A program made the position numbers and the translations under genes. The notes below the pieces were generated by a model that was not told the DNA's origin, searched no databases, and worked only from the letters and a program-made list of their open reading frames with translations. Positions 1,001 through 42,172 of a stretch of DNA of 64,000 bases are shown here, piece after piece; within the stretch, counting starts at the first letter, position 1; each line of letters begins with the position of its first letter. Origin of the DNA: a virus (lineage: Duplodnaviria > Caudoviricetes); IMG/VR virus record IMGVR_UViG_3300042885_001472; one strand, written 5' to 3'.

Positions 1001-2551
1001 ATGGCTATAAGGAAAACGACACACATATTAAAAAATACCCAAACAAATAATAAATCATTACCATCAAATGGTATTGAAATGGGTGAACCATTAGTAAATC
1101 TATTTAATGGTATATTATATTTCTCTGGAACAAGTGGTGGGAATTTCACACCAAGTGATAATAATTCAACTTATTTTGAAGTTGGTTCTAATATCAATAA
1201 TTTAGTTATTAGGGATCAAATAACTTCTTATAGTGGTGTTACCAATTTAACCGGTAAATTTTTATCAGGATCAACAAATGGTTTTGTTTTAGCGGATATA
1301 ACATCAATCGCTGGTGTGGATAGTTACGTTACAGGTGTTACGTGGTCACCAAATACATTAACCATTAGTTTAAATAATGGTAAACCAAATGTACCGGTAA
1401 CTCTAAGTGCGTTCACTGATATTGATTTATATGGTAATAATGTTGTTAAAGGTAATTTAAATGTTACTGGTACAACTACACTTGAAAGTTTAAGTTATTA
1501 TAACCCCACAGTTTTAGGAACAAATCCATTAGAAATAACTAATGTTGGTTATTTAACTGGATATGTCAATACAAATGAAATTTATGTAACAGGTGGTACA
1601 GTTTCAGTACCAGCTACAAATAATACAAATTCAGCGACAATTGGATTATATTATAAAAATCTTAATATCCCACACACATTACCATTCCAAAATACCTATA
1701 CAACTGGTGGTACATATAATTCAGGTACATCTTCAATTGATTTTAAAAGAAATGATGGGGTAAATTATAGTGTAGATTTAAGTAATATAGATATAAATGA
1801 TACATATGTTACAGGTTTCACTTATAATGGAACTAATAATTCATTAACTATAAGTAGGAATCAGGGTGAACCAGATTTAACACAATATATAACATCATTT
1901 TCTGGTATATCTATTGGTAATTTAACTTCTGGTCAAGTTGTTTACGCGGGTGTTAGTGGAGAATTAAAAACTGATACTACCGGTGAATTCGCGTATGATG
2001 ATTCAACGAACACATTAACACTTGGAACTACTAGTGGTAACTTAGTTGTTAATAACGGACTTTCTGATGGTCCGGTAAAATTTGGACAAGGTGGTTTAAC
2101 TATTGGTTCAAACGGATCAATTAGTACCCCTGGTATTGGGGACTTAATAGTCCATGGTAATTTTATAGTATTTGGTACTGGTACAACTGTAGCTACAAAT
2201 GAATTATATGTTGAAGACCCACAAATAACATTAAACTATAATCCAACTGGTGACACTTCAATAACATCTTTAGCCTCTGGTATTAGAATTCAAAATGGAG
2301 CTGGATTACTATCCGGTATAACCTCTGGTGACACTTATTTTACTATCACCCAATTAAACACTTTAACTGGTTTAACAGGGACACAAATACCTGATGTTAC
2401 AGAATACACTGGTAGTGAAGGTTATAATAATAGGGGTTGGTTAACACAATTAAATGATATCGTTATTAGAAATACTAATTTTAACAATGGAGCTCCGAAT
2501 GGGGTAAGGGTCTTATGCGAATGGGATCGACTCGATGGGGGAACCTATTAA
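1001..2551 (+). CDS. Tail fibre/whisker-like structural protein (Gly/Thr/Asn-rich, 516 aa)
   Basis: N-terminal GEPLVNLFNGILY motif (Mtd N-terminal-like, by eye); repeated DxY(V/T)TG(G/F/V)T(Y/W) modules; ends DGGTY. Confidence 0.6.
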   Translation: MAIRKTTHILKNTQTNNKSLPSNGIEMGEPLVNLFNGILYFSGTSGGNFTPSDNNSTYFEVGSNINNLVIRDQITSYSGVTNLTGKFLSGSTNGFVLADITSIAGVDSYVTGVTWSPNTLTISLNNGKPNVPVTLSAFTDIDLYGNNVVKGNLNVTGTTTLESLSYYNPTVLGTNPLEITNVGYLTGYVNTNEIYVTGGTVSVPATNNTNSATIGLYYKNLNIPHTLPFQNTYTTGGTYNSGTSSIDFKRNDGVNYSVDLSNIDINDTYVTGFTYNGTNNSLTISRNQGEPDLTQYITSFSGISIGNLTSGQVVYAGVSGELKTDTTGEFAYDDSTNTLTLGTTSGNLVVNNGLSDGPVKFGQGGLTIGSNGSISTPGIGDLIVHGNFIVFGTGTTVATNELYVEDPQITLNYNPTGDTSITSLASGIRIQNGAGLLSGITSGDTYFTITQLNTLTGLTGTQIPDVTEYTGSEGYNNRGWLTQLNDIVIRNTNFNNGAPNGVRVLCEWDRLDGGTY

Positions 2552-2581
2552 TGGTGGATACTATTAACTTTTTATTTTAAT

Positions 2582-2611
2582 AAAAGGATGGGTTATCTCA
2601 TCCTTTTTTTT
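2582..2611 (+). terminator. Rho-independent terminator
   Basis: AAAAGGATGGG-TTAT-CTCATCCTTTT stem (one G-U pair) followed by a T-run, just after the 516-aa gene. Confidence 0.8.
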
Positions 2612-2692
2612 ATTAAGACATATTTATCTTTAGGTTATATAACCATTAAAACATAAACTCTATATAGAGTAGAATTATTTTAAACCATCAAT

Positions 2693-3400
2693 ATGGCTGA
2701 TAAGATAAAAACACCTGTTATTTATAAAATAACAAATTTAATAACTAATAAAATCTATATTGGTAGTACTAATAATTTCCATCTTAGGAAATATACCCAT
2801 TTAAATCATTTACGGAATAATAAACATTGTAACAAAATATTACAAAATTCTTGGAATAAACATAGTGAAATTAATTTTAATTTTGAAATAATAGAACACA
2901 CTACACAAGATAATTTAATGATCTTAGAACAATATTATTTAGATTTATATAAACCATATAATAAAGATATTGGTTATAATATAGCTAAACTAGCTTGCCC
3001 TAATAATTCCGGTATAAAACATATTACTAAACAAATAGCTTGGAATAAGGGATTAAAATTACCGGCTTCTTGGAATAAAAATAAAAAATTAACTAAAGAA
3101 CATAAAGAAAAGTTGAGTATATCCGCTAAACTAAGGAAGAGATTACCTTGTTCTAATGAAACTAAAATTAAAATTAGTCTAAAACAGATAGGTAAAAATG
3201 GTAATAATTATGGTAAACCTACAAATAGAAAAAAAGTATATAAGTTTGATTTAAATAATAATTTAATTAAAGAATATGATTTTTTAAGTGAAGTAACCAA
3301 AGATGGTTTTAACTTTAAAAAAGTTAGTGCAGTTGCTTTAGGTAAGGGTAAAACACATAAAAATTATAAATGGTCTTACAACATTAACTATGAGTGTTAG
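2693..3400 (+). CDS. Free-standing GIY-YIG homing endonuclease with NUMOD3/NUMOD1-type DNA-binding tail
   Basis: VIYKITNLITNKIYIGST...R...H...N..LQNSWNK...E..LEQYY...GYN; C-terminal KKVYKFDLNNNLIKEY...KGKTHKNYKW. Confidence 0.9.
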   Translation: MADKIKTPVIYKITNLITNKIYIGSTNNFHLRKYTHLNHLRNNKHCNKILQNSWNKHSEINFNFEIIEHTTQDNLMILEQYYLDLYKPYNKDIGYNIAKLACPNNSGIKHITKQIAWNKGLKLPASWNKNKKLTKEHKEKLSISAKLRKRLPCSNETKIKISLKQIGKNGNNYGKPTNRKKVYKFDLNNNLIKEYDFLSEVTKDGFNFKKVSAVALGKGKTHKNYKWSYNINYEC

Positions 3401-5771
3401 GAAAAATAAATTATTATTAAAAGGTTCAAATGTACCAGGTAAAGTACCTAGTGATGGTGATTTAGAATTAAAAGAATTGGCACTAAATTTTGCTGATGTT
3501 ATTTTATACGCTTCTGGTACTACCGCAAATTCTATAATACCAATCGGATGGGATCGAGTAGCTAGAACTGGTGATATTATGACTGGCACTCTATACGTAC
3601 CAAGTATATCTGCCACAACAATTTCAGCGACAACTTTCTATGGTGACGGACAATATTTAACAGGTATTAATGATTATTATGTAACAGGTGGAACTTTTAG
3701 TGGGACTACCTTAACATTAAATAGACAAGATGGTTCTATATTAGTAACTGGTTTTACATCTACTTCAGTTGATACATACACAACTGGGTTTACATATTCA
3801 AACAATAATTTAACAATATTACAAAATAATAACCAATCCCCATTAAATGTAAATATATCATTAATGACTGGTTTAACGGTTAATGGGAATTCTAATTTTA
3901 ATGTAGTAACCGCGACATCAGTTAGTAATTTAAATTATATTATTTTTAATACTGGTACAACAAGTGGTACTACCCTACCAGGTACTGTTTATTTTGATAA
4001 TACTGAAAAAGCGTTATCGTATAACACATCAATTAATCAAGGTGTTACGGTAAATTTAGGTCAACAAAATTATATACGAGTTTTTAATAATAGTGGTGTA
4101 GATATACAAAGGGGTAAAGCGTTAGAAATATTATCAGCCTATAATGGTTTACCATCGGTAATCTTAGCGATAAATAAACATGAAGGTTTTAGTATCATAG
4201 GTATGTCCGCTGAAATAATTCCTAATAATACTGAAGGGATTGTTATCACTAGTGGTATTATTAGTAATATAGAATTAACTGGTATGACGGTTGGTTCACT
4301 GATGTACGCTTCAGATAGTATTCCTGGTAATATAGATGAGGCTAGTAAATATTTCACATTTCCTTTAACCGCTAGAACAAATAGTGTTGGTTATGTTATT
4401 CAAACAGGTAGTACTACCGGAAAGTTATTTGTTAATATAGAAAATGAAAATCCTATACTATCTTTTACCGATTTAGAGAGAAATGTATTAGAAGGTAATG
4501 TTATATCTACAGGTGTATTTGAGTTTAAAGGTATTTCAATATCAACCGGTAATACATTTAATGTTGGTAGTGTAGAAGCTTATATAGTAGACAATACATC
4601 AAATCCATTAAAACCAAACGCTTTATATGTACCATTTATCGGTCAAAGTGGTTTAACTACACCCTATCTAACAACTGATACCGAAACATATATTTTATTA
4701 ACAAGTGGTGGGACAATATCATTACAACCAACATTCCCAACACCACAACAAAGAAGATTATCCATTTATTTAGGTAAATTAGGTCATGGTAATAAAACAT
4801 CACTTATTAACGCTTTTAATGAACCAGATTTAGATATTTCACCATTATCACAACTTCGTGATGTGTTCTCACCAATTAAACTTATAAATGATGGGGTTGT
4901 AAGTAGTCCAAATGGTGTTAATTTAAATTTTAACACAAGTGCTGGTTATATTTGGGGGTTAGGTATTAATTTCGTTAACGATGTTTTAAATCCAAGTCGT
5001 TTTACCGTACCTTCTAATAGTCCAACAACATTTCAATATAGAACACGGACTGGAGGAACAGCTTCAAATACAACTCTAGTTATACCAGGTAGTTATGATC
5101 TAAATGGTGTCATTACACCTGTTGGAACGCCCGCAAAACAAGCTACAAACCAAAGGATATTCTTATTACAAAATGGTCAAATTAGGTTACAATATGGTCA
5201 ACAAAAATATATTGATTTACCCACAGCAATAGCTGCCACACAAAATGAAAATTTTACGACATTTGCTAATTTTAGAGATAACGCTATTCTTATAGGTGTT
5301 TTATCATTACGTTCAGACGCAACTAATTTATCAAGTACTAGTCAAGCTTTATTTCACATAGTATCTAAATTTGGTGAACTTGGTGGTGGTACTGCAGGTA
5401 TATCTACAACAACACTTCAACAAGCCTACAATAATTCATCTAACCCAGAGATTATAACAAACCCAACACAAAATAGTGTTCAATTTCGTGGTGGCACTGG
5501 TAATGATACAGATAAAACTATTACACTTGAAAATAACATAGGTACTCCAACAGCTTGGATTTTAGGTGATGGTGGTGCCACGTTTAGTTCAGTTTCAGCG
5601 ACAACTTATTATAATTTACCAACAACTGTTGATACATATACTACTGGATTTACCTATTCAAATAACAATCTAACCATAAGTCAAAATCAAGGTCAATCTC
5701 CATTAACAGTTAATATTTCATCTATAACAAACTCAGCTACAAACTTATTTAACTATTATAATTTTATATAA
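3390..5771 (+). CDS. Tail fibre-like structural protein (793 aa)
   Basis: N-terminal KVPSDGDLELKELALNFADVILY (Mtd N-terminal-like, paralogous to 1001..2551); Thr/Gly-rich; duplicated DTYTTGFTYSNNNLTI module. Confidence 0.6.
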   Translation: MSVRKNKLLLKGSNVPGKVPSDGDLELKELALNFADVILYASGTTANSIIPIGWDRVARTGDIMTGTLYVPSISATTISATTFYGDGQYLTGINDYYVTGGTFSGTTLTLNRQDGSILVTGFTSTSVDTYTTGFTYSNNNLTILQNNNQSPLNVNISLMTGLTVNGNSNFNVVTATSVSNLNYIIFNTGTTSGTTLPGTVYFDNTEKALSYNTSINQGVTVNLGQQNYIRVFNNSGVDIQRGKALEILSAYNGLPSVILAINKHEGFSIIGMSAEIIPNNTEGIVITSGIISNIELTGMTVGSLMYASDSIPGNIDEASKYFTFPLTARTNSVGYVIQTGSTTGKLFVNIENENPILSFTDLERNVLEGNVISTGVFEFKGISISTGNTFNVGSVEAYIVDNTSNPLKPNALYVPFIGQSGLTTPYLTTDTETYILLTSGGTISLQPTFPTPQQRRLSIYLGKLGHGNKTSLINAFNEPDLDISPLSQLRDVFSPIKLINDGVVSSPNGVNLNFNTSAGYIWGLGINFVNDVLNPSRFTVPSNSPTTFQYRTRTGGTASNTTLVIPGSYDLNGVITPVGTPAKQATNQRIFLLQNGQIRLQYGQQKYIDLPTAIAATQNENFTTFANFRDNAILIGVLSLRSDATNLSSTSQALFHIVSKFGELGGGTAGISTTTLQQAYNNSSNPEIITNPTQNSVQFRGGTGNDTDKTITLENNIGTPTAWILGDGGATFSSVSATTYYNLPTTVDTYTTGFTYSNNNLTISQNQGQSPLTVNISSITNSATNLFNYYNFI
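3768..3860 (+). repeat. Copy 1 of a 31-codon intragenic repeat (copy 2 at 5628..5720)
   Basis: VDTYTTGFTYSNNNLTILQNNNQSPLNVNIS vs VDTYTTGFTYSNNNLTISQNQGQSPLTVNIS; DNA differs mostly at third codon positions. Confidence 0.9.
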
Positions 5772-5793
5772 AAATAAAAAAAAACAAAAAAAT

Positions 5794-6051
5794 ATGATGA
5801 CTTACACAGCACCAGACGGAACAATAATAGAATCATTACCATATCCACAAGAGGTAAATTATACCTCAATATGTGAAGGAATAGTTGATGGTATTTATTA
5901 TTCAATGGAAACAACAGGAGCAGCAACTATTATTGGAATCCAACAAATTAAGATTAGAAGATTTGTTGAGAATAACAATATGGACTTATCAATCATAATG
6001 AGCTCTGACGCAGAGTTGATTGAATATCAAAATAATAATAAATTAATATAA
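5794..6051 (+). CDS. Small hypothetical protein (fibre-associated/chaperone candidate)
   Basis: 85-aa ORF with an A-rich leader, located between fibre genes. Confidence 0.5.
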   Translation: MMTYTAPDGTIIESLPYPQEVNYTSICEGIVDGIYYSMETTGAATIIGIQQIKIRRFVENNNMDLSIIMSSDAELIEYQNNNKLI

Positions 6052-6057
6052 TATAAC

Positions 6058-6477
6058 ATGGCAGCAAATACAGTCCCTATAATGATTCTTAATGGTAATT
6101 TTATACCTGGTAGAATAGCAGCAGCAAATACAGCTTCAGATGGTTCTGGAGCATTGGTAATAGTAGTAACAGGTGGAACTGAAGGTTCTAGAGTAGATGG
6201 AATAAGATTTACAAACTCATCAACAAGTGCCTCAACAGCAACCGCTAAAGTTTTTAAAATATTTTTATCAGATACTAGTGGAGCCAATTTTAAAATTATT
6301 GGTGAAGTTATAGCAGCAGCTGTAACAAGAAGTAATACGGTGGCTGGTCAAACGGCTATTTATACTTTTGACCAAGCAATTATTATGCAAAGTGGTCAAA
6401 TTATATCTGTATGCCAATCAGTATACACAACAGCAGCAGACCAAACAGATGCTATTGCATTTGCAGGAAATTATTAA
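6058..6477 (+). CDS. Small beta-rich virion/fibre-associated protein
   Basis: MAANTVPI...AANTASDGSG...GGTEGSRVDGIRF; Ala/Thr-rich; closely coupled to neighbouring ORFs. Confidence 0.55.
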   Translation: MAANTVPIMILNGNFIPGRIAAANTASDGSGALVIVVTGGTEGSRVDGIRFTNSSTSASTATAKVFKIFLSDTSGANFKIIGEVIAAAVTRSNTVAGQTAIYTFDQAIIMQSGQIISVCQSVYTTAADQTDAIAFAGNY

Positions 6478-6483
6478 TAGAAT

Positions 6484-8466
6484 ATGGCAGCTAGAACGGT
6501 TAGTATATTAGGTGGAAATTGGAATGCAACAGCAACTTGGGTTGGTGGTGTAGTTCCTCTTGTTGGAGATACAGTTGATTTTACAGCATTATCTGGACCT
6601 CTTGTTGTTAATATAGCAACGGTTATTTTAGCTGGTATAAATTTTACTAATTATGTTAATACAATTACTTTTAATAATATTATCCAATTAAATGGAAGTT
6701 TAAATTTAGGAACAGGTGGTTACACACAAGCTGGAGCAAGTGGATTATGGTTACTTGGTAACACAAGTATAAGTGGAACTACTGTTTGGACTAGAACATT
6801 TACAGTATCTATAGGCTCTGCTGTAACATTTACTTTATCAAATAACTTAAATTTAACTGATTTATCATTAACTGGTAATGGTGGTTTATTAAGTTTTATA
6901 TTAGGTGGAAATGTAGTATCAATATCTAATAATATATCTTTTTTTGGAAATGGTTCATTTACCTTAAATATTCCTAACGATTTACAAATAACCAATCTAT
7001 TACTTGGTGCTAATAATGCTCGTACTTGTGTTATAAATGGTTTTACTTTATCTATATCTGGTAATTTAACTCAAAGTCAAGGCATATTCATAACATCTGG
7101 TACGGCATCAATTTTATTAAATGGTACTGGAACTTGGAGTAATACTAGTACAGGAGCTTTAAGAAACAATTTAACAATTGATACTGCTGGAACAATTACA
7201 ATAAGTGGAACTGTATATTTTAATTCAGCAACAATTACCTATATTCAAGGGAATGTTATAACAACAGGAAGTACCTTGGTTATAGCTGGTATAACTACGT
7301 TAAATTGTGGAAATATGAATGATATAATTACAAATAAATGGAATAATATTGTTTCTGCGTCTGGAGCTTATGTGTTAATTAGTGATTTAAACTGTCAAAA
7401 TTTTACAGGAGGTGGTGGTGCTGTTACTTTTACTAATTCTGGAGGAAATATTTTTATCTCTGGTAATTTATTACATAATAGTAGTGGTGCTATATTAGGT
7501 ACAGCAAGTATTAATTTAATTGGTACAGGAACTTGGACTGATACAACTACAAATGACATAAGAAGTAACTTAAATATTAACACTACAGGAACAATTACTA
7601 TAGTTGGTAATATTGCTTATAGTGTAGGAACTTTAACATATATTTCTGGAACAGTAGTTACTACAAGTTCTACATTAACTCTTGGTAATGGAGCAATTTT
7701 AGATACAAATGGAATTACGTGGAATAATATTATTCCATCTGGGACTGTTACTTTGACAAGTGATTTATATTTTAGTGGTTTATTTGCAAATTCAGCAGCT
7801 AGTGCTTTTAATATAAATGGTTCTAATATTTATTGTATGAGTGGAAAATTACAAGGTTTAGGTAATGGTATTATATTTTCAGGAACTTCTACTTTTATTT
7901 TTAAAGGTGATTCAAGTTTTTTTACACAATATTCAGGATTTAATCTTGCTTTAAATACAATAATAGATTGTAATACACTCACTTTAGCAAGTAATAATAC
8001 AACTCAATTTTCATCATTTAGTACAAAAACATTAACTTATGTTAGCGGTAAAATAAATAAAAGAGCATATTTACAATTACTTTCAAATTGTACATTAATT
8101 AATTTTAATAAATGTATAATAGATAATATTGTAATAACAACTGGACAAATTATAACTATGAATGAGTTTTTTAGTGGTAATCCAAGTAAAATTATAAAAT
8201 TAACATCAACAAGTCTATCAACAAATTATACAATAGCCTTTCAAAATGGTTTTGAAAAAATAGCAAAATTTGTTGATATTAATAATTGTACATTATCAAA
8301 ACCACTACAATTATTGGTTATTACTAATAGTCCAAGAAATTCAACTAATAGAGGTATAAGATACATCAATCAAAGTCCAAATGGGATAGCTAAAAATAAT
8401 CCAAGTATTAATGTTCCTATGACATTTGGTGCAGGGGGATTATTATCTGATCCAAATATGAGGTAA
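6484..8466 (+). CDS. Putative beta-helix/beta-solenoid receptor-binding or tailspike-like protein (660 aa)
   Basis: GGNWNATATWVGGVVP N-terminus (G8/autotransporter-like); repeated LNGTGTW...NLTINTxGTITI.G units; almost no charged residues. Confidence 0.5.
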   Translation: MAARTVSILGGNWNATATWVGGVVPLVGDTVDFTALSGPLVVNIATVILAGINFTNYVNTITFNNIIQLNGSLNLGTGGYTQAGASGLWLLGNTSISGTTVWTRTFTVSIGSAVTFTLSNNLNLTDLSLTGNGGLLSFILGGNVVSISNNISFFGNGSFTLNIPNDLQITNLLLGANNARTCVINGFTLSISGNLTQSQGIFITSGTASILLNGTGTWSNTSTGALRNNLTIDTAGTITISGTVYFNSATITYIQGNVITTGSTLVIAGITTLNCGNMNDIITNKWNNIVSASGAYVLISDLNCQNFTGGGGAVTFTNSGGNIFISGNLLHNSSGAILGTASINLIGTGTWTDTTTNDIRSNLNINTTGTITIVGNIAYSVGTLTYISGTVVTTSSTLTLGNGAILDTNGITWNNIIPSGTVTLTSDLYFSGLFANSAASAFNINGSNIYCMSGKLQGLGNGIIFSGTSTFIFKGDSSFFTQYSGFNLALNTIIDCNTLTLASNNTTQFSSFSTKTLTYVSGKINKRAYLQLLSNCTLINFNKCIIDNIVITTGQIITMNEFFSGNPSKIIKLTSTSLSTNYTIAFQNGFEKIAKFVDINNCTLSKPLQLLVITNSPRNSTNRGIRYINQSPNGIAKNNPSINVPMTFGAGGLLSDPNMR

Positions 8467-26009: not shown

Positions 26010-29000
26010 ATGGTTGAAGCTAGTAAAATAGGGGTTAGTAATGGTGCGTCAATAACAGTAGTTGATCCAAATCCAAGTGGAAGTGGGATTATACCTATGG
26101 AGGATTTATTCATTTACGTTAGTTTACGAATAAAACCAAAAAGTAGAAGTGTTTTAGAAGTTACTGGGAGAGTTAATGATATTAATAATGAAGAGGGTGT
26201 TGTTTTAAATCTTATTGGTACTAAAACTGATGATCCACTAAAAAATGAGTATATGACAACGGATTGGTCTAATACTGGTGGACCACTTGGGGGTAGAAAA
26301 AATAATGAAACATTTGGTATTAAAAGTATTAGTATTAGTTATGGTGCTGATTTATTACCAGTTGTTAATATGACATTTATTGATGTTAAAGGAGCTTCAT
26401 TTTTTGATGGTTTTGAAAAAACTAGTACTACCGGTATTAAATCAAATAATTCTGATTTTTCATCATTTTTTAAAATCCCATACCCAATATTTGAACTAAC
26501 AGTTAAAGGTTATTATGGCAAAGCTGTTAAATATTATCTTAATATGACTAAATGGACAGCCGCTTTTTCTGAAGGAAACTTTGAAATTAAGGCTAGCTTC
26601 CTTGGATATAGTACATCATTCTTTTCAGATATATTAATGGATCATGTTAGAGCTATTGTTGAAACAGATAGTGGACGAATTGAATTAAAAAAAGTTTTTA
26701 AAAATAAAGATGTTGTTACAATAAATGAAATGTTGAGAAACATTGGTAATGTTGGTAAATACCTTGAAGATATAAAAGCTAAAAATAATAAACAAAATGA
26801 CCAAGGGTATGGTGAATTAATTAATTTAAATGAAACCTTAAGTAGTTTATCAAACATTAGAAATAAAATTGGGATACCAATACAAAAGTTAACATCAAGT
26901 GATGTAGATTATTTTAAATTGGAAGGACCATATATTAGTTATGATGGGTTATCCCCAAGAAGTAATATATTCGCTTTTAGAGATATAATACTAATACCAA
27001 ATGGTAATGGTAAAACTTTAGAAACATATAATAAATTTAGGGATGATATTGTATCACAAATGAAAAAATATGATGAAAGTTTACAATTAATTGGTGGTGG
27101 TAAATATACTGATAGTTATGGTATATCAAAAAATAGCGGTAAAAAAATTGATGAAATTTTTCCTATTTTAAAAGAAAGTAATGAAGATGTTAAAACTGTT
27201 GTAACATCTATTAATAAAATTTTAGTTGAAGGTACTAATGGTAGACCAAAAGATGAGGGTTATATTAAAAGTGAAGAGTATTCAAAACCACCATTTGAAT
27301 TTACAGGAGTAACTGATACAATAAAAATTGACGAAAAAGCTAACATGTATGATTTTTATAAAATTAGAGATGTAGTTAACCAAATTTATAATAATTTAAT
27401 TGAAAAAAGGAAGAATTTTGCTGATGAGGTTACTGAGAAAATAAATAAAGAAATCAGTAAAAAAATTGGTTTCAATCCTTCTGTTGGGGATGTTTTTGAA
27501 ATTCTATGTAATAATGTTGAAGCTTATATAAATACAATTTATACTGTTTCTTTAAATGCTGAAAATAAAAATGATGGTAGGGTTGCTGCTTTTAATGGTA
27601 TTGAAAGTGATACTACTAGTAAAAGTGATAAAAACAATAAGGATAAAAGGATATATCCTTGGCCAATGGTTTATGTAGATGATGTTGAAAAATATATTGG
27701 TGATGTTAAAAATATTAGTTCTAAAGAAGAAGCCTTCCCAGAAATAATGTTTGTTGAAGAAATAATCGCCGCTCAAATAAAAGAAAATGATAAAACTAAT
27801 GAGATTGTAATACCATTACCTAATAGTAAAAGATCATTTCCAATTAATCCAGCGGATTTTGCGAATACGTTAGATCCATACCCATTTAATGTGTCAAATG
27901 CTAATCCAAGAGTTTTAGATAATTTATTATCAAGTATAATTAATAGAGCCGTAATTAGTTATGATTATAGTTGTTTAAAAGATAATATTAATGATATTGC
28001 TAAATTAGAAGCTGCAGCTCTATTTAGTAGTATTTTTGATAATATTGATAGAAATGCTATTAACAGATATTTGGAAAATAATAAATTGAATTATTTTGGA
28101 ATACCAACTGTTAAAAAAAATCTATCAATAACTAAAACTGGTTCAACATATTATTTTGGTGAAACATTAGATTTAAATGATACTTATAAAAATATTTCAA
28201 GTACAATTATAGATTCAAAAACTATATTTTTTGATACATCAATTAGTATTTCACCATTAACTAGTAGATTTTTAAATCAAAATAATTATGATTTAATAAC
28301 TAATGTTAAAAATAGTTTAGGTGAAAAAAATGTTAGTGATGTATTTACACCAAAAAAAGGTGACATGGAGTTTAATACAACTTATTATAGTGTTGAACAA
28401 AATTTAACAAAAATGTGTTGGGATGATTCTGTATTGGGTGGTAAATCATATCCCCAAACAGATAAACTTTTAGAATATGTTGGTAAAGTTAAAGATGGTA
28501 TAACACAAAAAATTTATAATTTATCTCAGTCACCTTCTTATTTAAACTATTCTTCAACTACAGTGACACAAACACTATATAATGATTTACCTGAAAATCA
28601 ATTTAAGGGTATGATGATATTATCAACTTACCCATTTAAAGGAATCGATAAATTAGTAGAAAATTTAACTGATATAAGTAAGGTTGTTAACGTACCATTC
28701 CCATATTTAGCGTGGATTGGGGCTCAAATGAAACGACAAGAATTATTTATTAAGAATAATGATGTTGATTTAATTAAGTCATGGTTTAATGTAAATAATG
28801 AGTTCTCCCCGGACCAAATAGGTGATAAAAACGATTATTTATGGTTAAGTAGTAAAACAAATAATAAAGGTAAATTACCAACACCATTTAATGATTATAC
28901 TTTATTTAACCCTAATATAAATCAAGTCTTTATTACTGTTTTTGAAAATTGGTGTACTTTAGCCAATGAGTGTGGTCTTATTGATTATTATGATGGTCCA

Positions 29001-30833
29001 ATATCTGTTACTGAACTTGGATCACAAACAGAACTGACTAAAATATTAAATTCAATTAATTATTTTTATACAAATGAATTGATAGAATTAGTATCCTATA
29101 CACCAAATTTTTGGAATTTAAAAACGGATAGTCAATTTAAAATTGAAGAAGAAGTTTTAAATAATTATTTAAATGTTTTTACTGAAAAATATAGTCAATT
29201 AAATAGTGTAACTGTTACAACAACATCAAATTATTTAACACCTAGAAAATTAGATGATAAAGATATTAAATTAGCTACATATAAAACAGTAAAAAATTTA
29301 TATGATAAATGGATAGGTGGTACATTAGATGGAAAACCATTTAATGTTGGTGTAAATACCAGTAAATCAAATCAGAATCCATCATTATATTCTAGTTTTA
29401 GATTTATTGATCAAGATTATAATGACATATCTAGTGACGCTAAAATTAATTTAAAATCTGTATTATCTATTTTAGATAATCCAAATATGAATTTTTTATC
29501 ACTTATATCTAAAATATTAACTGATAATAATTTTTTATTACATAAACTACCAGTTTATGTTGATTATTCAGATATTGAAAGTGTTAAAGATATTTTTAGA
29601 GTATTCCCATCTATCACAAATGTTAATAGTGGTGTGTCTTATATAGCGATGTATGGAACTGGAAATTCAAAGTTATTAGATATACAAACTGGTTTTGATT
29701 ATAAAGGTGATGGATATGATTTTATAAATAGTAATACCGATTCTTCAGCGTTACCAGGTAACGTAACAAAAGATGGTAAAGGTAAAAATTTAGTTGCCTT
29801 TAGAGTTGGATTTGGTGATGAAAATCAAAGTATATTTAAAAATATTAGAATAAGTCAAGAAGAAATGTCCGATACGGCAGAGTATTTTAAAGCGTTAAAC
29901 GATTTAACAAGTGAAAAGGGTGCGACAAATAGAGTGTTAAAAGGGGTTGATTTATATCATTTAAATTCTATTAGATCATATAATGTTAATATGGATATGA
30001 TGGGTAATGCTATGATACAACCATTAATGTATTTACAATTAGATAATATACCAATGTTCCATGGGGCTTATAGTGTGATTAATATTAATCATGAGATTAC
30101 CCCCAATAAAATGAATACAACAATTAGAGCTGTAAAACAATCTAAATATAGGACACCAATTGTTACTGAATCAACCACATTTGTACCACTTGACTTGAGT
30201 AAAGGATTAAATTTAAACTCTGGGTTTAATATTGCCACTGTAACTAATATTCAGAGTGATGTTTTAAGTACTAATACTATAGATTCTTTTACCCCACCGG
30301 TTGATGGTGAAGTAAAAATAACTAGTAAGAAGGGACTTAGAAATGGTAAACAACATAATGGTATTGATATTGGTGTTGCCGTTGGGACACCAATTAAAGC
30401 GTCATGGGATGGTAAAGTAAATAAATTTCTTCAAGGACCTAACGGAACTGAGGGTTATGGTTTATATGCGATAATTGACCATTCACTTGATGGTAGACCT
30501 TTTGATGATGGGTTTTATTATTATACATTATATGGACATTTAAATCAATGTAATTTATCAACTAATACAATAGTAAAAGGTAAACAAGCTTTTAGTCTTT
30601 CTGGTGGTGAAAAGGGTGAAAATAATAGCGGTAATTCAGGGGGACCCCATTTACATTTTGAAATAAGACGTAGTAGTGAAAAATTAATTGATATACGAAA
30701 TGGTTATGGTAGATTATCCGGTTCAAATATTTTAAACCCTGAGGATTTTATTAAAAAATCTGATCAAAAAATTGTGAGTGGAGCACCTAATCATGGTCAA
30801 TTAGGTAGTACATCTAGTGGGGTTATAGCCTAA
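26010..30833 (+). CDS. Baseplate hub protein (gp27/VgrG-like) fused to a C-terminal M23 peptidase
   Basis: M23: HNGIDIG..VGTPIKA...GYG...IDH...YTLYGHL...GNSGGPHLHFEIR (about 30290-30750); hub-like FGIKSISISY...YPIFELTVKGYYG and MMGNAMIQPLMY...GAYSVININHEI. Confidence 0.8.
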   Translation: MVEASKIGVSNGASITVVDPNPSGSGIIPMEDLFIYVSLRIKPKSRSVLEVTGRVNDINNEEGVVLNLIGTKTDDPLKNEYMTTDWSNTGGPLGGRKNNETFGIKSISISYGADLLPVVNMTFIDVKGASFFDGFEKTSTTGIKSNNSDFSSFFKIPYPIFELTVKGYYGKAVKYYLNMTKWTAAFSEGNFEIKASFLGYSTSFFSDILMDHVRAIVETDSGRIELKKVFKNKDVVTINEMLRNIGNVGKYLEDIKAKNNKQNDQGYGELINLNETLSSLSNIRNKIGIPIQKLTSSDVDYFKLEGPYISYDGLSPRSNIFAFRDIILIPNGNGKTLETYNKFRDDIVSQMKKYDESLQLIGGGKYTDSYGISKNSGKKIDEIFPILKESNEDVKTVVTSINKILVEGTNGRPKDEGYIKSEEYSKPPFEFTGVTDTIKIDEKANMYDFYKIRDVVNQIYNNLIEKRKNFADEVTEKINKEISKKIGFNPSVGDVFEILCNNVEAYINTIYTVSLNAENKNDGRVAAFNGIESDTTSKSDKNNKDKRIYPWPMVYVDDVEKYIGDVKNISSKEEAFPEIMFVEEIIAAQIKENDKTNEIVIPLPNSKRSFPINPADFANTLDPYPFNVSNANPRVLDNLLSSIINRAVISYDYSCLKDNINDIAKLEAAALFSSIFDNIDRNAINRYLENNKLNYFGIPTVKKNLSITKTGSTYYFGETLDLNDTYKNISSTIIDSKTIFFDTSISISPLTSRFLNQNNYDLITNVKNSLGEKNVSDVFTPKKGDMEFNTTYYSVEQNLTKMCWDDSVLGGKSYPQTDKLLEYVGKVKDGITQKIYNLSQSPSYLNYSSTTVTQTLYNDLPENQFKGMMILSTYPFKGIDKLVENLTDISKVVNVPFPYLAWIGAQMKRQELFIKNNDVDLIKSWFNVNNEFSPDQIGDKNDYLWLSSKTNNKGKLPTPFNDYTLFNPNINQVFITVFENWCTLANECGLIDYYDGPISVTELGSQTELTKILNSINYFYTNELIELVSYTPNFWNLKTDSQFKIEEEVLNNYLNVFTEKYSQLNSVTVTTTSNYLTPRKLDDKDIKLATYKTVKNLYDKWIGGTLDGKPFNVGVNTSKSNQNPSLYSSFRFIDQDYNDISSDAKINLKSVLSILDNPNMNFLSLISKILTDNNFLLHKLPVYVDYSDIESVKDIFRVFPSITNVNSGVSYIAMYGTGNSKLLDIQTGFDYKGDGYDFINSNTDSSALPGNVTKDGKGKNLVAFRVGFGDENQSIFKNIRISQEEMSDTAEYFKALNDLTSEKGATNRVLKGVDLYHLNSIRSYNVNMDMMGNAMIQPLMYLQLDNIPMFHGAYSVININHEITPNKMNTTIRAVKQSKYRTPIVTESTTFVPLDLSKGLNLNSGFNIATVTNIQSDVLSTNTIDSFTPPVDGEVKITSKKGLRNGKQHNGIDIGVAVGTPIKASWDGKVNKFLQGPNGTEGYGLYAIIDHSLDGRPFDDGFYYYTLYGHLNQCNLSTNTIVKGKQAFSLSGGEKGENNSGNSGGPHLHFEIRRSSEKLIDIRNGYGRLSGSNILNPEDFIKKSDQKIVSGAPNHGQLGSTSSGVIA

Positions 30834-36530: not shown

Positions 36531-37931
36531 ATGACAAATAAAAGTACAGACAGTTTAGGTTATTTAGGTCACACATTTCAATTAAAATTATTAAATCAGA
36601 TATTATTAGATGATAAGTTTTCATCAACGATAATCGATGTTTTAGATCCAACTTATTTTGATAATGAATACCTTAGATTAATTTCTAGTAAAATTAAAGA
36701 TTACCACGAAAAGTATGAAACAATACCAGAGGTTAACACTTTAGAACAAATGTTAATCGTTGAGATTAAAAGAGAAGTTACCAGACAACATACTTTAGAC
36801 TTATTAAATGAGGTTAAAGATATATCTCAAAAAGATAGTATTTATACCCAAGAAACTGGGTTGATGTTTTGTAAACAACAGGAGTTAAAAAAAGCTACTA
36901 AGAAAATTCAAAAAATTCTTGATATGGGTGATTTTGATCGATACCAAGAATGTGAAGAAATACTTAAACAAGCTTTAACTGTTGGTAATTTAAAAGATAA
37001 TGGGGTTGATATTTTTAGTGGTATTGATGATGTATTATCTGATGACTTCAGAAATCCAATCCCAACCGGTATTCATGGGTTAGACAATCTAATGGATGGT
37101 GGTTTATCTAAAGGTGAGTTAGGTGTTATATTAGCCCCATTTGGTGTTGGTAAAACAACTATGGTAACTAAGTTAGCTAATACAGCGTATAACTTAGGAT
37201 TTAATGTAGTCCAAATATTCTTTGAGGATAATCCTAAAGTAATACAGAGAAAACATTTTACGTGTTGGACTGGTGTTGAGTTAAATAAATTAAATGAAGA
37301 AAGAGAACGAGTTAAGTTTGAGGTTGAGAGTATTAAAGAAAATTCAACCGGAAACCTAATTTTAAAGAAATTCCCAAGTGATGGTACGACAATACCACAC
37401 ATCAAACAATACCTTAGAAAATTAACATCTGATGGGATTAGACCAGATATCGTATTACTTGATTATATTGATTGTGTACAACCATCTAAACGAGTTGATG
37501 ATGTAAACGTTGGTGAAGGTAATGTGATGAGAGAATTTGAATCTATGATTGATGAGTTAAGTCTTGTTGGTTGGACTGCGATACAAGGTAATAGAGGTTC
37601 AATTGGTGCTCAAGTAGTTGAAGCTAATATGATTGGTGGTTCTATTAAGAAAGGTCAGATTGGTCACTTTATAGTTTCTATAGCTAAAACATTAGATCAA
37701 AAAGAAGAGGGTAGAGCTACTATGGCGATTCTTAAATCTAGATTTGGTAAAGATGGTGTTATATTTGAAGATATTGTTTTTGATAATGGAACAATTTGTA
37801 TTGATACTACATCTTCAAGTGATGTTTCTTTCTTAAGTTTTGAGAAGGGGTTAGATAAAAAGAAATCAAATAGAATACAAGATGCTCTTAAACTAAGAGA
37901 AGAGTTTTTAAATAAAAATAAAAGTAATTAA
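36531..37931 (+). CDS. dnaB: DnaB/T4 gp41-like replicative helicase
   Basis: [35 protein letters not shown] (Walker A); FFED; IVLLDYID (Walker B); WTAIQGNR; ILKSRFG. Confidence 0.92.
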
Positions 37932-37932
37932 T

Positions 37933-38883
37933 ATGGAACCAATACTAGTAACAAATCCTGATAGGTTTGTATTATTCCCAATTGAACATCAAGATTTGTG
38001 GGAATACTACAATATTGAAAAAGCTGCGATGTGGACAGCTGAAGAATTAGATTTATCAAAAGATATTGATCATTGGGAAAACAAATTAACTGATAATGAA
38101 AGATTTTTCATTAAAAATGTATTGGCTTTTTTCGCCGCGTCTGATGGTATTGTAAATGAAAATTTAGCTATCAATTTTTTAAATGAAGTACAATATACTG
38201 AAGCTAAGTTTTTTTATGGGTTTCAAATTATGATGGAGAATATACATAGTCATGTGTATTCTTTATTGATTGACACTTATATAAAGGATATTAAAGAAAG
38301 ACATAAATGTTTTAAGGCTATTGAGTACATGCCACCGGTTAAGAAGAAGGCTGATTGGGCTTTGAAATGGATTGAATCAGAATCATTTGTTGAAAGACTA
38401 TTAGCTTTTGTGGCGGTAGAAGGTATATTTTTTAGTGGTTCTTTTTGTAGTATATTCTATTTAAAGTCTAGAGGATTAATGCCGGGGTTATGTGATAGTA
38501 ACGCTTTCATATCAAGAGATGAAGCCTTACATTGTGATTTCGCGATACATTTATTAAACAATCATATTGTTAATAAACCATCTAAAGAAAAAATAAAGGA
38601 GATATTATTATCTGCGTTAGATATTGAAAAAGAATTTATATTAGAATCATTACCAGTATCACTTATTGGTATGAACGCTGATTTAATGAAACAATATTTG
38701 GAGTTTGTTGTTGATGGTTTACTATCAACACTCAATTGTGAAAAAGTATTTAACACAAAAAATCCATTTGAATTTATGAATCAAATTGCGTTAAAAACAA
38801 AACAAAACTTTTTTGAGGGGAGATCTACAGAATATAAAGCCGCTGATTTATCAGGACCAATATCATTTGACGAAGAAATTTAA
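37933..38883 (+). CDS. nrdB: Ribonucleotide reductase class Ia beta subunit
   Basis: FVLFPI...[11 protein letters not shown]...[12 protein letters not shown]...MENIHS..Y...EGIFFSGSF...ISRDEALH...NFFE. Confidence 0.97.
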
Positions 38884-38903: not shown

Positions 38904-40469
38904 ATGCGAGTAATAAAAAGAAATGGGTCTAAGATTGATTTCAACCCAAATAAAATTTTAACTAGAATAAAAAAACAAGCGGAAGGGTTAAAAATAAATG
39001 CTGATGAAGTATTTCTTAAAGTTACTCAAGGTATTGCTGATAATATGACAACCGATGAAGTTGATGATTTAATTTCAGTTGTGTCAGAATCATTAGCTAT
39101 GAATCATCCAGACTATTCTAAGTTGGCCGCTAACATATCAATTAGTAAATTACATAAAGAAACTGAAGATTCTTTTATGAAGGCTACTAAAAGATTATAT
39201 AACGCTGGTTTATTAAATGATTTCTATTATAATAAAGTAAAAGAAAATATTGATCTGATTGAATCAGTAATTGATTATAAAAGAGATTATAGATTTGATT
39301 ATTTTGGATGGTGTTCACTTAAAGATATCTACTTATTAAAAATTGGTGATGAAATAACAGAAAGACCACAACACCTATACATTAGAGTAGCTTTAATGGT
39401 GACTAATAACCCTACTGATTTTAAAGAAAAGTATGAAGATTTAAGTTTACAAAGGGAATCTCCAGCTACGCCTATAAAAATTAATATTGGTACTAATATA
39501 GGACAAATTGCGTCATGTAATTTATCTATAGTTCCGGATGACTCAACTGAGGGGTTATTAAGTATGTTAAATAGAATATCAGTATCATCATCTAAAGCTG
39601 AAGGTATTGGTTTAGCTATATCTAACATTCGTTCAAAGGAAAGTAATGTTGGACAATCAAATGGTAAAGCTGGTGGTATTTTAAAATATTTAAAAGTTGT
39701 AAATGAAGCTTTAAGATTTTGGAATCAAAGAGGTAAACGACCTGGATCTTGCGCTGTTTATATTGAACCTTGGCATAAAGATGTATTTGATATTTTGGAT
39801 ATTAGAAAGAAAACTGGTGATGAAACACTTAGAGCACGAGATTTATTTTCAGCGTTATGGATACCGGATAACTTTATGAGAGCTGTTGAATCAAATGGGG
39901 ATTGGTATTTGTTTTGTCCTAATGACATTAAACAAGCTGGTTTAAAACCATTTTATGATATCTATGGTGAAGAATATGAGTTAGAATATAATAAGGCTGT
40001 TGAGATGGGTTTAGGTACTAAAATCAAAGCTCACGATTTGTGGTTAAGAATTATTGAATCACAAATTGAAAGTGGTATGCCTTATATGTGTTTTAAAGAT
40101 CATGCGAATAATAAATCAAATCAAAAGAATTTTGGTGTTATACATTCAAGTAACCTATGTTGTTTACATAGTGACACATTAATTACGATTATGTATGGTA
40201 ATGGTGAGATTAGAGAAGTAACTATGAAAAATGTTGTTGAAGAAATTAAAAAGGATAAAAATATAAAAGTTTTAAGTCAAGATAATATTTTTAGACCAAT
40301 GTTGGCTGCTGCGAAAATGAAATCAAACGCTGAAATTATAGAAGTTAGTGATGATGAGTTAGGGGTAAAAATAGTTTGTACACCAGATCACCAAATATTA
40401 ACAAAAAACAGAGGGTATGTTATGGCCGGTGAATTAAATGAAAATGATGAATTAATTATTAATAAATAA
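38904..40469 (+). CDS. nrdA: RNR class Ia alpha, fragment 1: N-extein (419 aa) + split-intein IntN1
   Basis: ATP cone MRVIKRNG; IASCNL; GIG..IS.IR; QRGKRPGSCAVYIEPWHKDV; ...SSNLC then intein sequence to the stop. Confidence 0.95.
   Translation: MRVIKRNGSKIDFNPNKILTRIKKQAEGLKINADEVFLKVTQGIADNMTTDEVDDLISVVSESLAMNHPDYSKLAANISISKLHKETEDSFMKATKRLYNAGLLNDFYYNKVKENIDLIESVIDYKRDYRFDYFGWCSLKDIYLLKIGDEITERPQHLYIRVALMVTNNPTDFKEKYEDLSLQRESPATPIKINIGTNIGQIASCNLSIVPDDSTEGLLSMLNRISVSSSKAEGIGLAISNIRSKESNVGQSNGKAGGILKYLKVVNEALRFWNQRGKRPGSCAVYIEPWHKDVFDILDIRKKTGDETLRARDLFSALWIPDNFMRAVESNGDWYLFCPNDIKQAGLKPFYDIYGEEYELEYNKAVEMGLGTKIKAHDLWLRIIESQIESGMPYMCFKDHANNKSNQKNFGVIHSSNLCCLHSDTLITIMYGNGEIREVTMKNVVEEIKKDKNIKVLSQDNIFRPMLAAAKMKSNAEIIEVSDDELGVKIVCTPDHQILTKNRGYVMAGELNENDELIINK
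40161..40469 (+). mobile_element. Split intein 1, N-half (102 aa)
   Basis: Block A CLHSDTLIT; block B IVCTPDHQIL; TKNRGYV..ELNENDEL then TAA; no endonuclease domain. Confidence 0.93.
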
Positions 40470-40470
40470 G

Positions 40471-40569
40471 ATGATAAAAATAAAAAAATTAGAAGAAAAA
40501 ATTGATGTATATGATATACAAGTAGAAGAAACTAGTAATTTCTTTGCTAATAATATATTAGTACATAAT
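40471..40569 (+). mobile_element. Split intein 1, C-half (33 aa)
   Basis: MIKIKK...block F VYDIQVEETSNFFAN, block G ILVHN, +1 Ser (TCC at 40570). Confidence 0.93.
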
Positions 40570-41457
40570 TCCGAAATTATGGAGGTAACTGATAAAGAAA
40601 CCACCGCCATCTGTACGCTAACGTCAATACCGGTTCAAAAATTTGTCATAGATAATGAGTATGATTTTAATGAATTAGGTCGTGTTACACGATCAATAAC
40701 AAAATCACTTAATATTGCGATAGATGTTAATGAATATTCAACTAAAGAAGGTAGAAAAGGTGGTTTAGAACAAAGAGCTTTAGGTATTGGTATCCAAGGA
40801 TTAGCTGACACTTTCGCTATGTTACGATTACCATTTGTATCTGAAGAAGCTAGATCATTAAATAAAAAAATATTTGAAACAATTTATTATAACGCTTTAA
40901 GACAATCTTGTGATTTAGCGAAAGAAACTGGATTAACTTATGATTTTTATGAAGGATCTCCAATTTCAAAAGGTATTTTCCAATGGGAAATGTGGGGTGT
41001 TGATGAATCTGAATTGAGTGGTATGTTTGATTGGAAACAATTAAGAAAAGATATTAAAAAATATGGTGTTAGAAACTCACTTGTCACGACCTGTCCGCCA
41101 ACCGCAAGTTGTCAAGTTATTGATACTAGAATACATACTGAAAATGGTGTTAAATCATTTAAAGATTTACTAGTTGAAAATGGTGTTGATTATGTTAAAT
41201 TAGAAGAATCTAATGAACAACAATGGGTTGAATTTAAAACACCTATAAAAGTAAAAACTTATAATGGGTATGAAGATGTAAGTCAAATAAAATATAATGG
41301 TCATTCTGAAGTTTATAAAATTGAAATGGAAGATGGTTCTATATTTGAAGCAACACCTAACCATAAATTTAGGATTAAAAGAGGTGATACTGAAATTTGG
41401 GTTAAAGTTGAGGATTTATTAACTACGGACGATATTATAAATATTTTTGAAAAATAA
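40471..41457 (+). CDS. nrdA: RNR alpha, fragment 2: IntC1 + middle extein (180 aa) + IntN2
   Basis: SEIMEV...AICTL...RALGIGIQGLAD...GVRNSL.TT.PPTAS flanked by intein halves. Confidence 0.93.
   Translation: MIKIKKLEEKIDVYDIQVEETSNFFANNILVHNSEIMEVTDKETTAICTLTSIPVQKFVIDNEYDFNELGRVTRSITKSLNIAIDVNEYSTKEGRKGGLEQRALGIGIQGLADTFAMLRLPFVSEEARSLNKKIFETIYYNALRQSCDLAKETGLTYDFYEGSPISKGIFQWEMWGVDESELSGMFDWKQLRKDIKKYGVRNSLVTTCPPTASCQVIDTRIHTENGVKSFKDLLVENGVDYVKLEESNEQQWVEFKTPIKVKTYNGYEDVSQIKYNGHSEVYKIEMEDGSIFEATPNHKFRIKRGDTEIWVKVEDLLTTDDIINIFEK
41110..41457 (+). mobile_element. Split intein 2, N-half (115 aa)
   Basis: Block A CQVIDTRIHT; block B FEATPNHKF; WVKVEDL...DDI then TAA. Confidence 0.88.
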
Positions 41458-41488
41458 AATAAGTAATCTAATAAAAACAAAAAATAAA

Positions 41489-41593
41489 ATGAAAATAAAA
41501 AGTATAATTAAAAACGGAGTTAAACCAACTTGGGATATTGAAGTACCAAATGTTCATCATTATATAATGGAAAATGGTTGTGTTAGTCATAAT
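41489..41593 (+). mobile_element. Split intein 2, C-half (35 aa)
   Basis: MKIKSI...block F TWDIEVPNVHHY, block G VSHN, +1 Ser (TCG at 41594). Confidence 0.88.
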
Positions 41594-42106
41594 TCGGCCC
41601 GTGTCATAGGTTCTAATGAAGCTTTTGAACCGTTTACTTCTAATTTATATGTTCGTAAGGTAACTGGTGGTGAATTCGCTATGGTTAATAAACATTTGGT
41701 TAAAGATTTAGAATTAGAAGGGTTATGGAATAGGGACATTCTTAATGAATTGATAAAAAATGATGGTAGCGTTCAATCAATCCCAGTTATTAGTCAAGAA
41801 ATGAAGGAAAGATATAAAACTGTTTGGGAGATATCACAAAAATCTCTTATTGAAATGTCGGCCGAAAGAGCTCCATTCATTGATCAATCTCAAAGTCTTA
41901 ACATATTTTTCGCCACACCAACGGTTGGTAAATTAACTACCTCACACACATTAGCTTGGAAGTTAGGTTTAAAAACTGGTCAATACTACCTAAGAAGTCA
42001 ACCGGTAGAAATGAAAGGTAAACATTTAGCTATTGATATGGGTAAACAAATTAAACCTGAGAAACCTACTGATAGTCAATTTGAATGTTATGGTTGTAGT
42101 GCGTAA
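41489..42106 (+). CDS. nrdA: RNR alpha, fragment 3: IntC2 + C-extein (170 aa); ATG 41489 preferred over TTG 41447
   Basis: SARVIGSNEAFEP; IDQSQSLN; GLKTGQYYLR; C-terminal CYGCSA redox pair. Confidence 0.92.
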   Translation: MKIKSIIKNGVKPTWDIEVPNVHHYIMENGCVSHNSARVIGSNEAFEPFTSNLYVRKVTGGEFAMVNKHLVKDLELEGLWNRDILNELIKNDGSVQSIPVISQEMKERYKTVWEISQKSLIEMSAERAPFIDQSQSLNIFFATPTVGKLTTSHTLAWKLGLKTGQYYLRSQPVEMKGKHLAIDMGKQIKPEKPTDSQFECYGCSA

Positions 42107-42137: not shown

Positions 42138-42172
42138 AAACTAGGGAAAATATCTCTAGTTTTTCTTTTTTT
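42138..42172 (+). terminator. Rho-independent terminator after nrdA
   Basis: AAACTAGGG-AAAATAT-CTCTAGTTT followed by a T-rich tract. Confidence 0.7.

Follow-up and report, generated by a model that had tools for sequence, protein, structure and literature searches.

A phage nrdA gene broken into three reading frames by two apparently unrelated split inteins: a likely case of natural tandem trans-splicing

In a stretch of viral DNA 64,000 nucleotides long (IMG/VR record IMGVR_UViG_3300042885_001472, hereafter the window), the RNR gene nrdA is spread over three neighbouring open reading frames (ORFs), the middle one of which opens with the C-terminal half of one intein and closes with the N-terminal half of another. 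The question that such an IntC-extein-IntN polypeptide raises is whether a complete NrdA can be put together from three chains and, if so, what would keep the middle chain from closing on itself, or the outer two from being joined without it. The source of the window is a freshwater (lake-water) jumbo, or giant, phage, and the exact sequence of the middle ORF is present on 13 contigs, the longest of 294,686 bp.

Anatomy of the divided gene

The three nrdA ORFs lie on the + strand at 38904-42106, each in another frame (Table 1). ORF1 (38904-40469) is a 419-aa extein, ending in SSNLC with the thiyl-radical Cys, followed by the 102-aa IntN1; ORF2 (40471-41457) is composed of IntC1 (33 aa), an extein of 180 aa and IntN2 (115 aa); and in ORF3 the 35-aa IntC2 precedes an extein of 170 aa. 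The layout of ORF2 proposed in the initial annotation, which was made from the sequence alone, is exact in coordinates and in composition, and the +1 Ser that it read for both inteins is there (VHN-S and SHN-S). It had also considered that ORF2 and ORF3 might prove to be one frame, with intein 2 an ordinary cis mini-intein; in this genome they are separate ORFs. An ORF-finding program puts the start of ORF3 at a TTG codon at 41447, but the true start is the ATG at 41489, because all relatives begin with MKI at that point.

The RNR barrel profile of Pfam (PF02867) is covered at positions 1-213 by ORF1, 213-396 by ORF2 and 393-523 by ORF3, and the intein profile PF14890 matches at the ORF ends. 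RNR catalytic motifs are distributed across all three chains, which between them and the neighbouring gene have the whole set of class Ia NrdA features: ATP-cone, all-alpha and barrel domains, NxCxE, the YY pair, CxxC, and nrdB. In particular, the adjoining nrdB marks the enzyme as class Ia. The three nrdA ORFs are probably co-transcribed; a consensus scan of the + strand gave no terminator-like sites between them. A tblastn search of the 64-kb window with eight intein halves found no further inteins.

Table 1. Features of the nrdB-nrdA region of the window (coordinates are those of the whole stretch).
Feature	Position	Strand	Basis and remarks
nrdB, RNR small subunit	37933..38883	+	PF00268, E 1e-102; immediately 5' of nrdA
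NrdA extein 1, 419 aa	38904..40160	+	ATP-cone, all-alpha, initial part of barrel; Pfam; colinear with intein-free homologues
IntN1, 102 aa, CLHSDT...	40161..40466	+	Cys1, block B TPDH; 8UBS/9OMB, E 6.3e-17; PF14890
Junction 1, TAA-g-ATG	40467..40473	+	+1 frame change; without homing endonuclease gene
IntC1, 33 aa, ...ILVHN, then +1 Ser	40471..40569	+	PF14890 positions 124-155; NrdJ-1, E 4.8e-5
NrdA extein 2, 180 aa, SEIMEV...PPTAS	40570..41109	+	Pfam; colinear homologues; RRM1 alignment
IntN2, 115 aa, CQVIDT...	41110..41454	+	Cys1, block B TPNH; intein profile
Junction 2	41455..41488	+	TAA and 31-nt A-rich non-coding spacer, then ATG
IntC2, 35 aa, ...CVSHN, then +1 Ser	41489..41593	+	Sequence, homologues
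NrdA extein 3, SARVIG..., 170 aa and stop	41594..42106	+	YY pair, C-terminal CxxC; Pfam, homologues, RRM1 alignment
Whole intein 2 element, 484 nt	41110..41593	+	Precisely missing from near-identical strain variant
Terminator-like hairpin and T run	42138..42172	+	3' of ORF3; consensus scan only

Both breaks between the ORFs are real. The frames at junction 1 would be joined by a single indel within 40456-40466, and those at junction 2 by one within the T5/A5 runs of 41444-41454; the breaks might then be frameshifts of sequencing or assembly, or be bypassed by programmed frameshifting, in which case both inteins would be ordinary cis mini-inteins. However, four lake metagenome runs of different years (2016, 2020 and 2024) yielded contigs in which both junctions recur with 0 differences and 0 gaps; two of these runs (X4 and X1) may represent the source sample, which leaves X10 and X12 as independent support. 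The stretch occurs in lake or freshwater runs from 24 different studies. Relatives, moreover, differ in sequence, spacer and frame, and yet their breaks still have a stop codon followed by a fresh ATG. This is so at both breaks in the loci L005-L008, which have the same three-ORF layout and are 74% identical in ORF2; junction 1 of L006 likewise reads TAA-n-ATG, and the spacer of junction 2 is 52 or 53 nt long in these relatives, against 31 nt in the window. Complete endonuclease genes stand between intein halves in close relatives (see below), and both IntC halves open with a conserved Met. Since the junctions are reproduced, the breaks are kept in relatives, and endonuclease genes are interposed there, sequencing error and programmed frameshifting are excluded for practical purposes, and we assign them a negligible probability.

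The two inteins and their boundaries

The limits of the exteins can be read from uninterrupted homologues, with which they are colinear. In more than 40 related loci free of inteins, among them L010-L056 with 82-90% extein identity, the three exteins abut in one frame, with neither gap nor overlap. At a shorter evolutionary distance, a strain variant 92-96% identical to the window in nucleotide sequence (L083) precisely lacks window positions 41111-41589 in the blastn alignment. The protein P0013 from that contig matches ORF2 at 98% identity along IntC1 and extein 2, and reads PPTAS-SARVIG through the empty intein 2 site. Alignment with human RRM1 puts the +1 Ser of intein 1 beside the radical Cys and passes through the site of intein 2, which by count lies between Ser606 and Thr607.

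NrdJ-1 (8UBS, 9OMB) is the best PDB match for both halves of intein 1 (E values in Table 1), and intein 1 can be placed by sequence in the NrdJ-1 family of split inteins. It sits at NLC^SEI, one residue after the thiyl-radical Cys, and shares with NrdJ-1 the insertion point, the SEI C-extein, Cys1 and the +1 Ser. NrdJ-1 is experimentally known as a fast split intein (Pinto 2020, PMC7090010). The hosts differ, NrdJ-1 residing in a class II NrdJ, whereas intein 1 resides in a class Ia NrdA with an ATP-cone and a neighbouring nrdB; intein 1 has also diverged from NrdJ-1 and shares its gene with a second split intein. Among relatives, the intein 1 homologue is found at NL^C, with +1 Cys, in L005-L008, in L081 and in clusters with the C-extein CAEI, CSEI or CTEI, and at NLC^C in L084, in the Klebsiella phage KP13-7 and in a Campylobacter phage.

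Intein 2 is inserted in a loop, at PTAS^S, and has weak matches to the DnaE, DnaX and GyrA inteins (E 2e-3 to 0.07); it represents a lineage without a close characterised relative, unrelated to intein 1. IntN2 lacks the TKNRGYV motif found in the C-terminal half of IntN1 and conserved in NrdJ-1 as well as in every intein 1 allele.

Both inteins have the features of class 1, namely Cys1, the TxxH of block B, terminal His-Asn and +1 Ser. They also have the anatomy of naturally split inteins, with halves on separate ORFs, a split at the endonuclease-insertion point and an IntC of about 35 aa with its own Met. In the alignment of the middle piece from 42 clusters, H32 and N33 of IntC1 and C214 and H298 of IntN2 are invariant, and across the same clusters the +1 residue of both inteins is invariably Ser, Cys or Thr.

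Both inteins are under purifying selection. Pairwise dN/dS ranges over 0.08-0.32 in IntC1, IntN2 and IntC2 and over 0.06-0.23 in the exteins, also where two doubly split alleles are compared; between the window and the doubly split L006, the extein values are 0.06-0.11. The value of 0.66 for IntN1 in the same comparison is disregarded, the two inteins there occupying adjacent different sites and being about 40% identical.

Probable assembly of NrdA from three chains

In the window, a class Ia nrdA gene is fractured into three ORFs by two unrelated split mini-inteins, and we propose the following route to a complete product. IntN1, at the tail of the first piece, would pair with IntC1 at the head of the second, and IntN2, at the tail of the second piece, would pair with IntC2 at the head of the third. 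Two protein trans-splicing reactions, relying on Cys1, TxxH, terminal His-Asn and +1 Ser, would then ligate segments of 419, 180 and 170 residues into an NrdA of 769 aa, while the non-cognate pairs (IntC1 with IntN2, and IntN1 with IntC2) would not react enough to matter. Tandem trans-splicing of this kind, with non-cognate reaction negligible, is the best explanation of the locus, and we consider it likely. We infer splicing, as well as its order and yield, from sequence, and regard it as the most likely fate of the three chains.

Two other readings deny that NrdA is ligated. RNR is auxiliary for many phages, and the loci related to the window are dense with inteins, introns and endonuclease genes, so that nrdA here could be a decaying pseudogene, overrun by selfish elements and giving no functional enzyme. 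Decay by selfish elements has been suggested for the nrdA of a Campylobacter phage (Dwivedi 2013), and that of phage CPt10 is annotated as disrupted. In the window, however, the three ORFs are intact, the RNR catalytic residues and the intein splicing residues are complete, and the layout is kept between lineages with no more than about 45-55% extein identity. The low dN/dS of the exteins, best seen in the comparison with the doubly split L006, and of the intein halves likewise indicates that the gene is not decaying, and we regard a pseudogene as very improbable.

The other reading retains the enzyme and dispenses with the ligation, the intein halves serving as mere association domains for chains that assemble non-covalently. 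A further intein of a relative with three split inteins (L081) has a Gly at +1, and +1 Gly is incompatible with standard splicing. There is also the precedent of an active fragmented phage NrdA, that of Aeromonas phage Aeh1 (PMC3045599), which, as described in Dassa 2009, assembles without splicing. The Aeh1 gene was split by invasion of a homing endonuclease (mobE) and still yields enzyme, and the splitting of the gene is shared with the window; yet in Aeh1 no intein is involved and the chains stay unligated, whereas complete split inteins are present at every break in the window. Against assembly without ligation stands the invariance, across 42 clusters, of Cys1, the block B His, terminal His-Asn and the +1 Ser, Cys or Thr, which would not be expected unless the splicing chemistry is used. 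In addition, inteins left in place would lie within the active site, one beside the radical Cys and the other in the PTAS loop. We therefore take non-covalent assembly to be improbable.

If trans-splicing does assemble NrdA, the two inteins have to be kept apart. The initial annotation reasoned that IntC1 must not react with IntN2, which would cyclise the extein, nor IntN1 with IntC2, which would skip the middle piece, and this need is supported by the arrangement of the locus: the cognate partners are on the flanking ORFs, and otherwise no working NrdA would result. That the two inteins are orthogonal is, as far as sequence can tell, a sound and reasonable inference, because a productive enzyme requires that they do not cross-react, because doubly split alleles are frequent (at least 47 clusters) and their exteins constrained (with the dN/dS given above for L006), and because one carrier, KP13-7, grows in culture.

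The same annotation saw in the divergence of the inteins a sign of selection for orthogonality. The divergence is evident, at 23% identity; the selection need not be invoked, since a separate origin of two mobile elements suffices. The inteins come from different lineages, and close relatives may have either one without the other, which argues that they were acquired separately; they behave as mobile elements in their own right, each with an endonuclease gene of its own. Split inteins of unrelated origin mostly prove orthogonal in published matrices (Pinto 2020, PMC7090010), which makes selection in place unnecessary, and cross-reaction of canonically split inteins is mainly seen between close homologues (Pinto 2020, PMC7090010; Beyer 2019).

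Charge complementarity, suggested there as a check, does not separate the two inteins, which have the same polarity: charges of -4 and -8 make the IntN halves acidic, and in each IntC half the first strand is basic. A charge-swap basis of orthogonality is ruled out by this common polarity. The strands at the split site are also alike (DELIINK / MIKIKKL for intein 1 vs DDIINIFEK / MKIKSII for intein 2). As polarity and junction strands are shared, cross-talk between inteins 1 and 2 may occur at the level of association.

From here it is a short step to a reading in which trans-splicing is real but orthogonality incomplete, so that appreciable amounts of extein 2 cyclised head to tail, or of an Ext1-Ext3 product without the middle piece, are formed and are tolerated, or limited by kinetics and translational coupling. 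The common polarity and the similar split-site strands are in its favour, as is the report that charge networks alone do not set orthogonality (Beyer 2019 preprint). It has to contend with the low identity and separate lineages of the inteins, with the lack of TKNRGYV in IntN2, with reports of cross-reaction mainly between close homologues, and with the frequency of doubly split alleles, and we judge it unlikely. An AlphaFold2 model of ORF2 (42-row alignment) leaves IntC1 unplaced, with pLDDT of 25-42. This is a weak test, given the positive control: for intein 2 as it naturally occurs in cis (P0033), the first IntC strand alone is predicted with confidence and the remainder is below 50.

Relatives, endonuclease genes and known systems

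The doubly split layout recurs. When the best 120 clusters (90% identity) were sorted by their parts, with full-length nrdA alleles left out by a length filter, 47 turned out to be IntC1-extein-IntN2 middle pieces, 43-80% identical to ORF2, so that there are at least 47 of them. A further 55 of the 120 have intein 1 only (IntC1-extein2-extein3), about nine have only the N-half of intein 2, and one (P0033) has intein 2 in cis. A more distant locus, L084, about 55% identical, has the gene order of the window, with a helicase gene, nrdB, the nrdA ORFs (again three) and a gp25-like gene. The nrdA of L081, on a 251-kb contig, has three split inteins and a group I intron. A doubly split nrdA is also present in the cultured Klebsiella jumbo phage KP13-7 (OP617745.1), with GIY-YIG and HNH genes interposed between the intein halves; its record names the pieces merely as hypothetical proteins. 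A second IntC-X-IntN chain was considered in the helicase gene of L006 and rejected, the upstream intein there being in cis, inside a 773-aa open frame.

In the window, only 1 nt and 31 nt separate the halves of inteins 1 and 2, respectively, and a free-standing homing endonuclease gene is absent from both places. Close relatives still have such genes. Between IntN1 and IntC1, a GIY-YIG ORF of 396 aa is found in L083 and a GIY-YIG/NUMOD gene in L005, with none in L006-L008; between IntN2 and IntC2, endonuclease-like ORFs of 350-500 aa are found in L002, L009, L084 and L081, and KP13-7 likewise has a homing endonuclease gene at this junction. Both inteins of the window have thus lost an endonuclease gene that is kept in close relatives, and the window is an endonuclease-less derivative, like gp41-7. 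Among close relatives, the states include no intein, either intein alone, the endonuclease gene kept or lost, and intein 2 in cis or split, and together they give a population-level view of the stepwise fracture of a gene through gain and loss of homing endonucleases.

Fractured phage genes with split inteins have been described, with one split per gene (Dassa 2009, PMC2677866). As in the window, phage genes of DNA metabolism are broken there at the endonuclease-insertion point of an intein, with the halves on consecutive ORFs of the same strand; a free-standing GIY-YIG or other endonuclease gene lies between the halves, as in the relatives of the window, and the gp41-7 locus, like the window, is without one. 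The RNR site next to the thiyl-radical Cys is among those covered in that study, and PTAS^S is not. The window differs in having two split inteins in one gene (three in L081), which is what produces an IntC-extein-IntN polypeptide.

That polypeptide has its counterparts in the laboratory. The initial annotation likened ORF2 to SICLOPPS, and the likeness is correct for the layout, but the middle fragment of engineered three-segment trans-splicing is the closer analogue. Both designs have an IntC-X-IntN fragment; in SICLOPPS the two halves are cognate, whereas in ORF2 they appear to be non-cognate, IntC1 being of NrdJ-1 type and IntN2 of another lineage. Engineered tandem trans-splicing likewise requires two split inteins that do not cross-react, as a guard against cyclisation and fragment skipping. 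Tandem trans-splicing and SICLOPPS are laboratory designs, for which the literature covered names no natural forerunner, whereas the layout of ORF2 is natural and conserved. In Humberg 2025, a paper on tandem trans-splicing with a co-author from the 2009 study, the joining of three segments is treated as an engineered scheme, and the words 'in nature' are absent from the text.

Split-intein fractured genes, the endonuclease-less form (gp41-7) and NrdJ-1-type inteins are already known. In the openly accessible full-text literature, no gene was found to be divided naturally by more than one split intein, and no natural IntC-extein-IntN polypeptide was found either; the papers covered there regard three-segment tandem trans-splicing and the IntC-X-IntN fragment as products of the laboratory. 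The design nonetheless recurs naturally, in at least 47 clusters, in several jumbo-phage lineages and in one cultured Klebsiella phage. The balance tips slightly towards the view that natural tandem trans-splicing is routine in phages, with an essential-type enzyme made from three chains (four in L081), two or three co-resident split inteins that would not cross-react, and intein 2 as a putative new family. If this is true, the conserved IntC-extein-IntN polypeptide would be a natural, previously undescribed counterpart of the engineered middle fragment, and intein 2 would stand for a new family of split inteins, one whose compatibility with an intein of NrdJ-1 type nature has already validated. 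The locus also provides a natural test case of how co-resident split inteins escape cyclisation and fragment skipping, and an uncharacterised split intein, intein 2, that is presumably compatible with an NrdJ-1-type partner. Many orthogonal split-intein pairs already exist, so the gain for protein engineering is modest.

The Firehammerviruses of Campylobacter (vB_CcoM-IBB_35, CPt10) offer an instructive comparison. Their nrdA has homologous inteins at both sites, with intein 1 split at NLC^C; intein 2, however, is contiguous (cis), so that an IntC-extein-IntN piece ending in an unattached IntN is absent. In the sequence records, the nrdA genes of these phages are annotated as disrupted or as misc_feature.

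Related nrdA genes in cultured and metagenomic phages

The doubly split nrdA of the window is also found in the cultured Klebsiella jumbo phage KP13-7 (OP617745.1), where it spans 1471-7001 and its pieces are labelled 'hypothetical protein' in the record. The order of the pieces and of the endonuclease genes between them is given in the table. A further break in the KP13-7 gene lies farther upstream, at 2350-3046, and contains an HNH ORF; this break also has a sub-threshold match to a group I intron (43 bits).

Both intein sites are likewise occupied in the Campylobacter phages vB_CcoM-IBB_35 and CPt10, which differ from the window in that intein 2 is contiguous and not split, and in having an additional cis mini-intein upstream. 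The database records label nrdA of these phages as disrupted, and a survey took it to be degenerating (Dwivedi 2013). The splicing motifs of the inteins are complete, so that the gene may be functional.

In a 251-kb metagenomic contig (L081), nrdA (1488-8323) contains three split inteins and two or three endonuclease genes. For the first of these inteins, the IntC ORF has the ending VHN|GGGK; its +1 residue is Gly, which is incompatible with standard splicing.

Features of nrdA genes related to that of the window
Feature	Location	Remark
KP13-7 IntN1	within 1471-7001	insertion at NLC|C
KP13-7 GIY-YIG gene	within 1471-7001	between IntN1 and middle ORF
KP13-7 middle ORF	within 1471-7001	IntC1-extein-IntN2, 341 aa
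KP13-7 HNH gene	within 1471-7001	between middle ORF and IntC2
KP13-7 IntC2	within 1471-7001	+1 residue Thr
L081 group I intron, full-length	3030-3330	RF00028, 62 bits; inside nrdA
L083 GIY-YIG gene, 396 aa	2805-3995	exactly between IntN1 and IntC1; window counterpart 40469-40471

Variation among close relatives

A strain of the window phage (L083, 92-96% identical) has the GIY-YIG gene and lacks intein 2; both selfish elements are thus polymorphic for presence or absence inside one phage population.

In the lake metagenome run X10, one contig connects 40457 with 41434 and skips the 976 nt between them; its depth is about 8, and on one side it covers no more than 21 nt. The join falls where the coding sequences of IntN1 and IntN2 resemble each other, at their 3' ends. 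Probably the contig was misassembled or comes from a relative; a genuine variant of this kind would lack the middle piece, ORF2. One low-depth X10 contig (2/16) has a one-base deletion at 40489, in an A7 run inside IntC1, which probably reflects an error or rare variation.

Helicase inteins and HINT symmetry

The DnaB-like helicase of another relative (L006 66-1394; G001 27278-30013) has a cis intein at the P-loop, within a 773-aa open frame, and a second intein that is split and charge-reversed (IntN +7, IntC -15). No intein is present in the helicase of the window itself (36531-37931).

In one alignment, MAFFT matched IntC2 to the YKIEMEDG...NH segment of IntN2. The HINT fold thus shows its pseudo-two-fold symmetry in the very sequence of intein 2.
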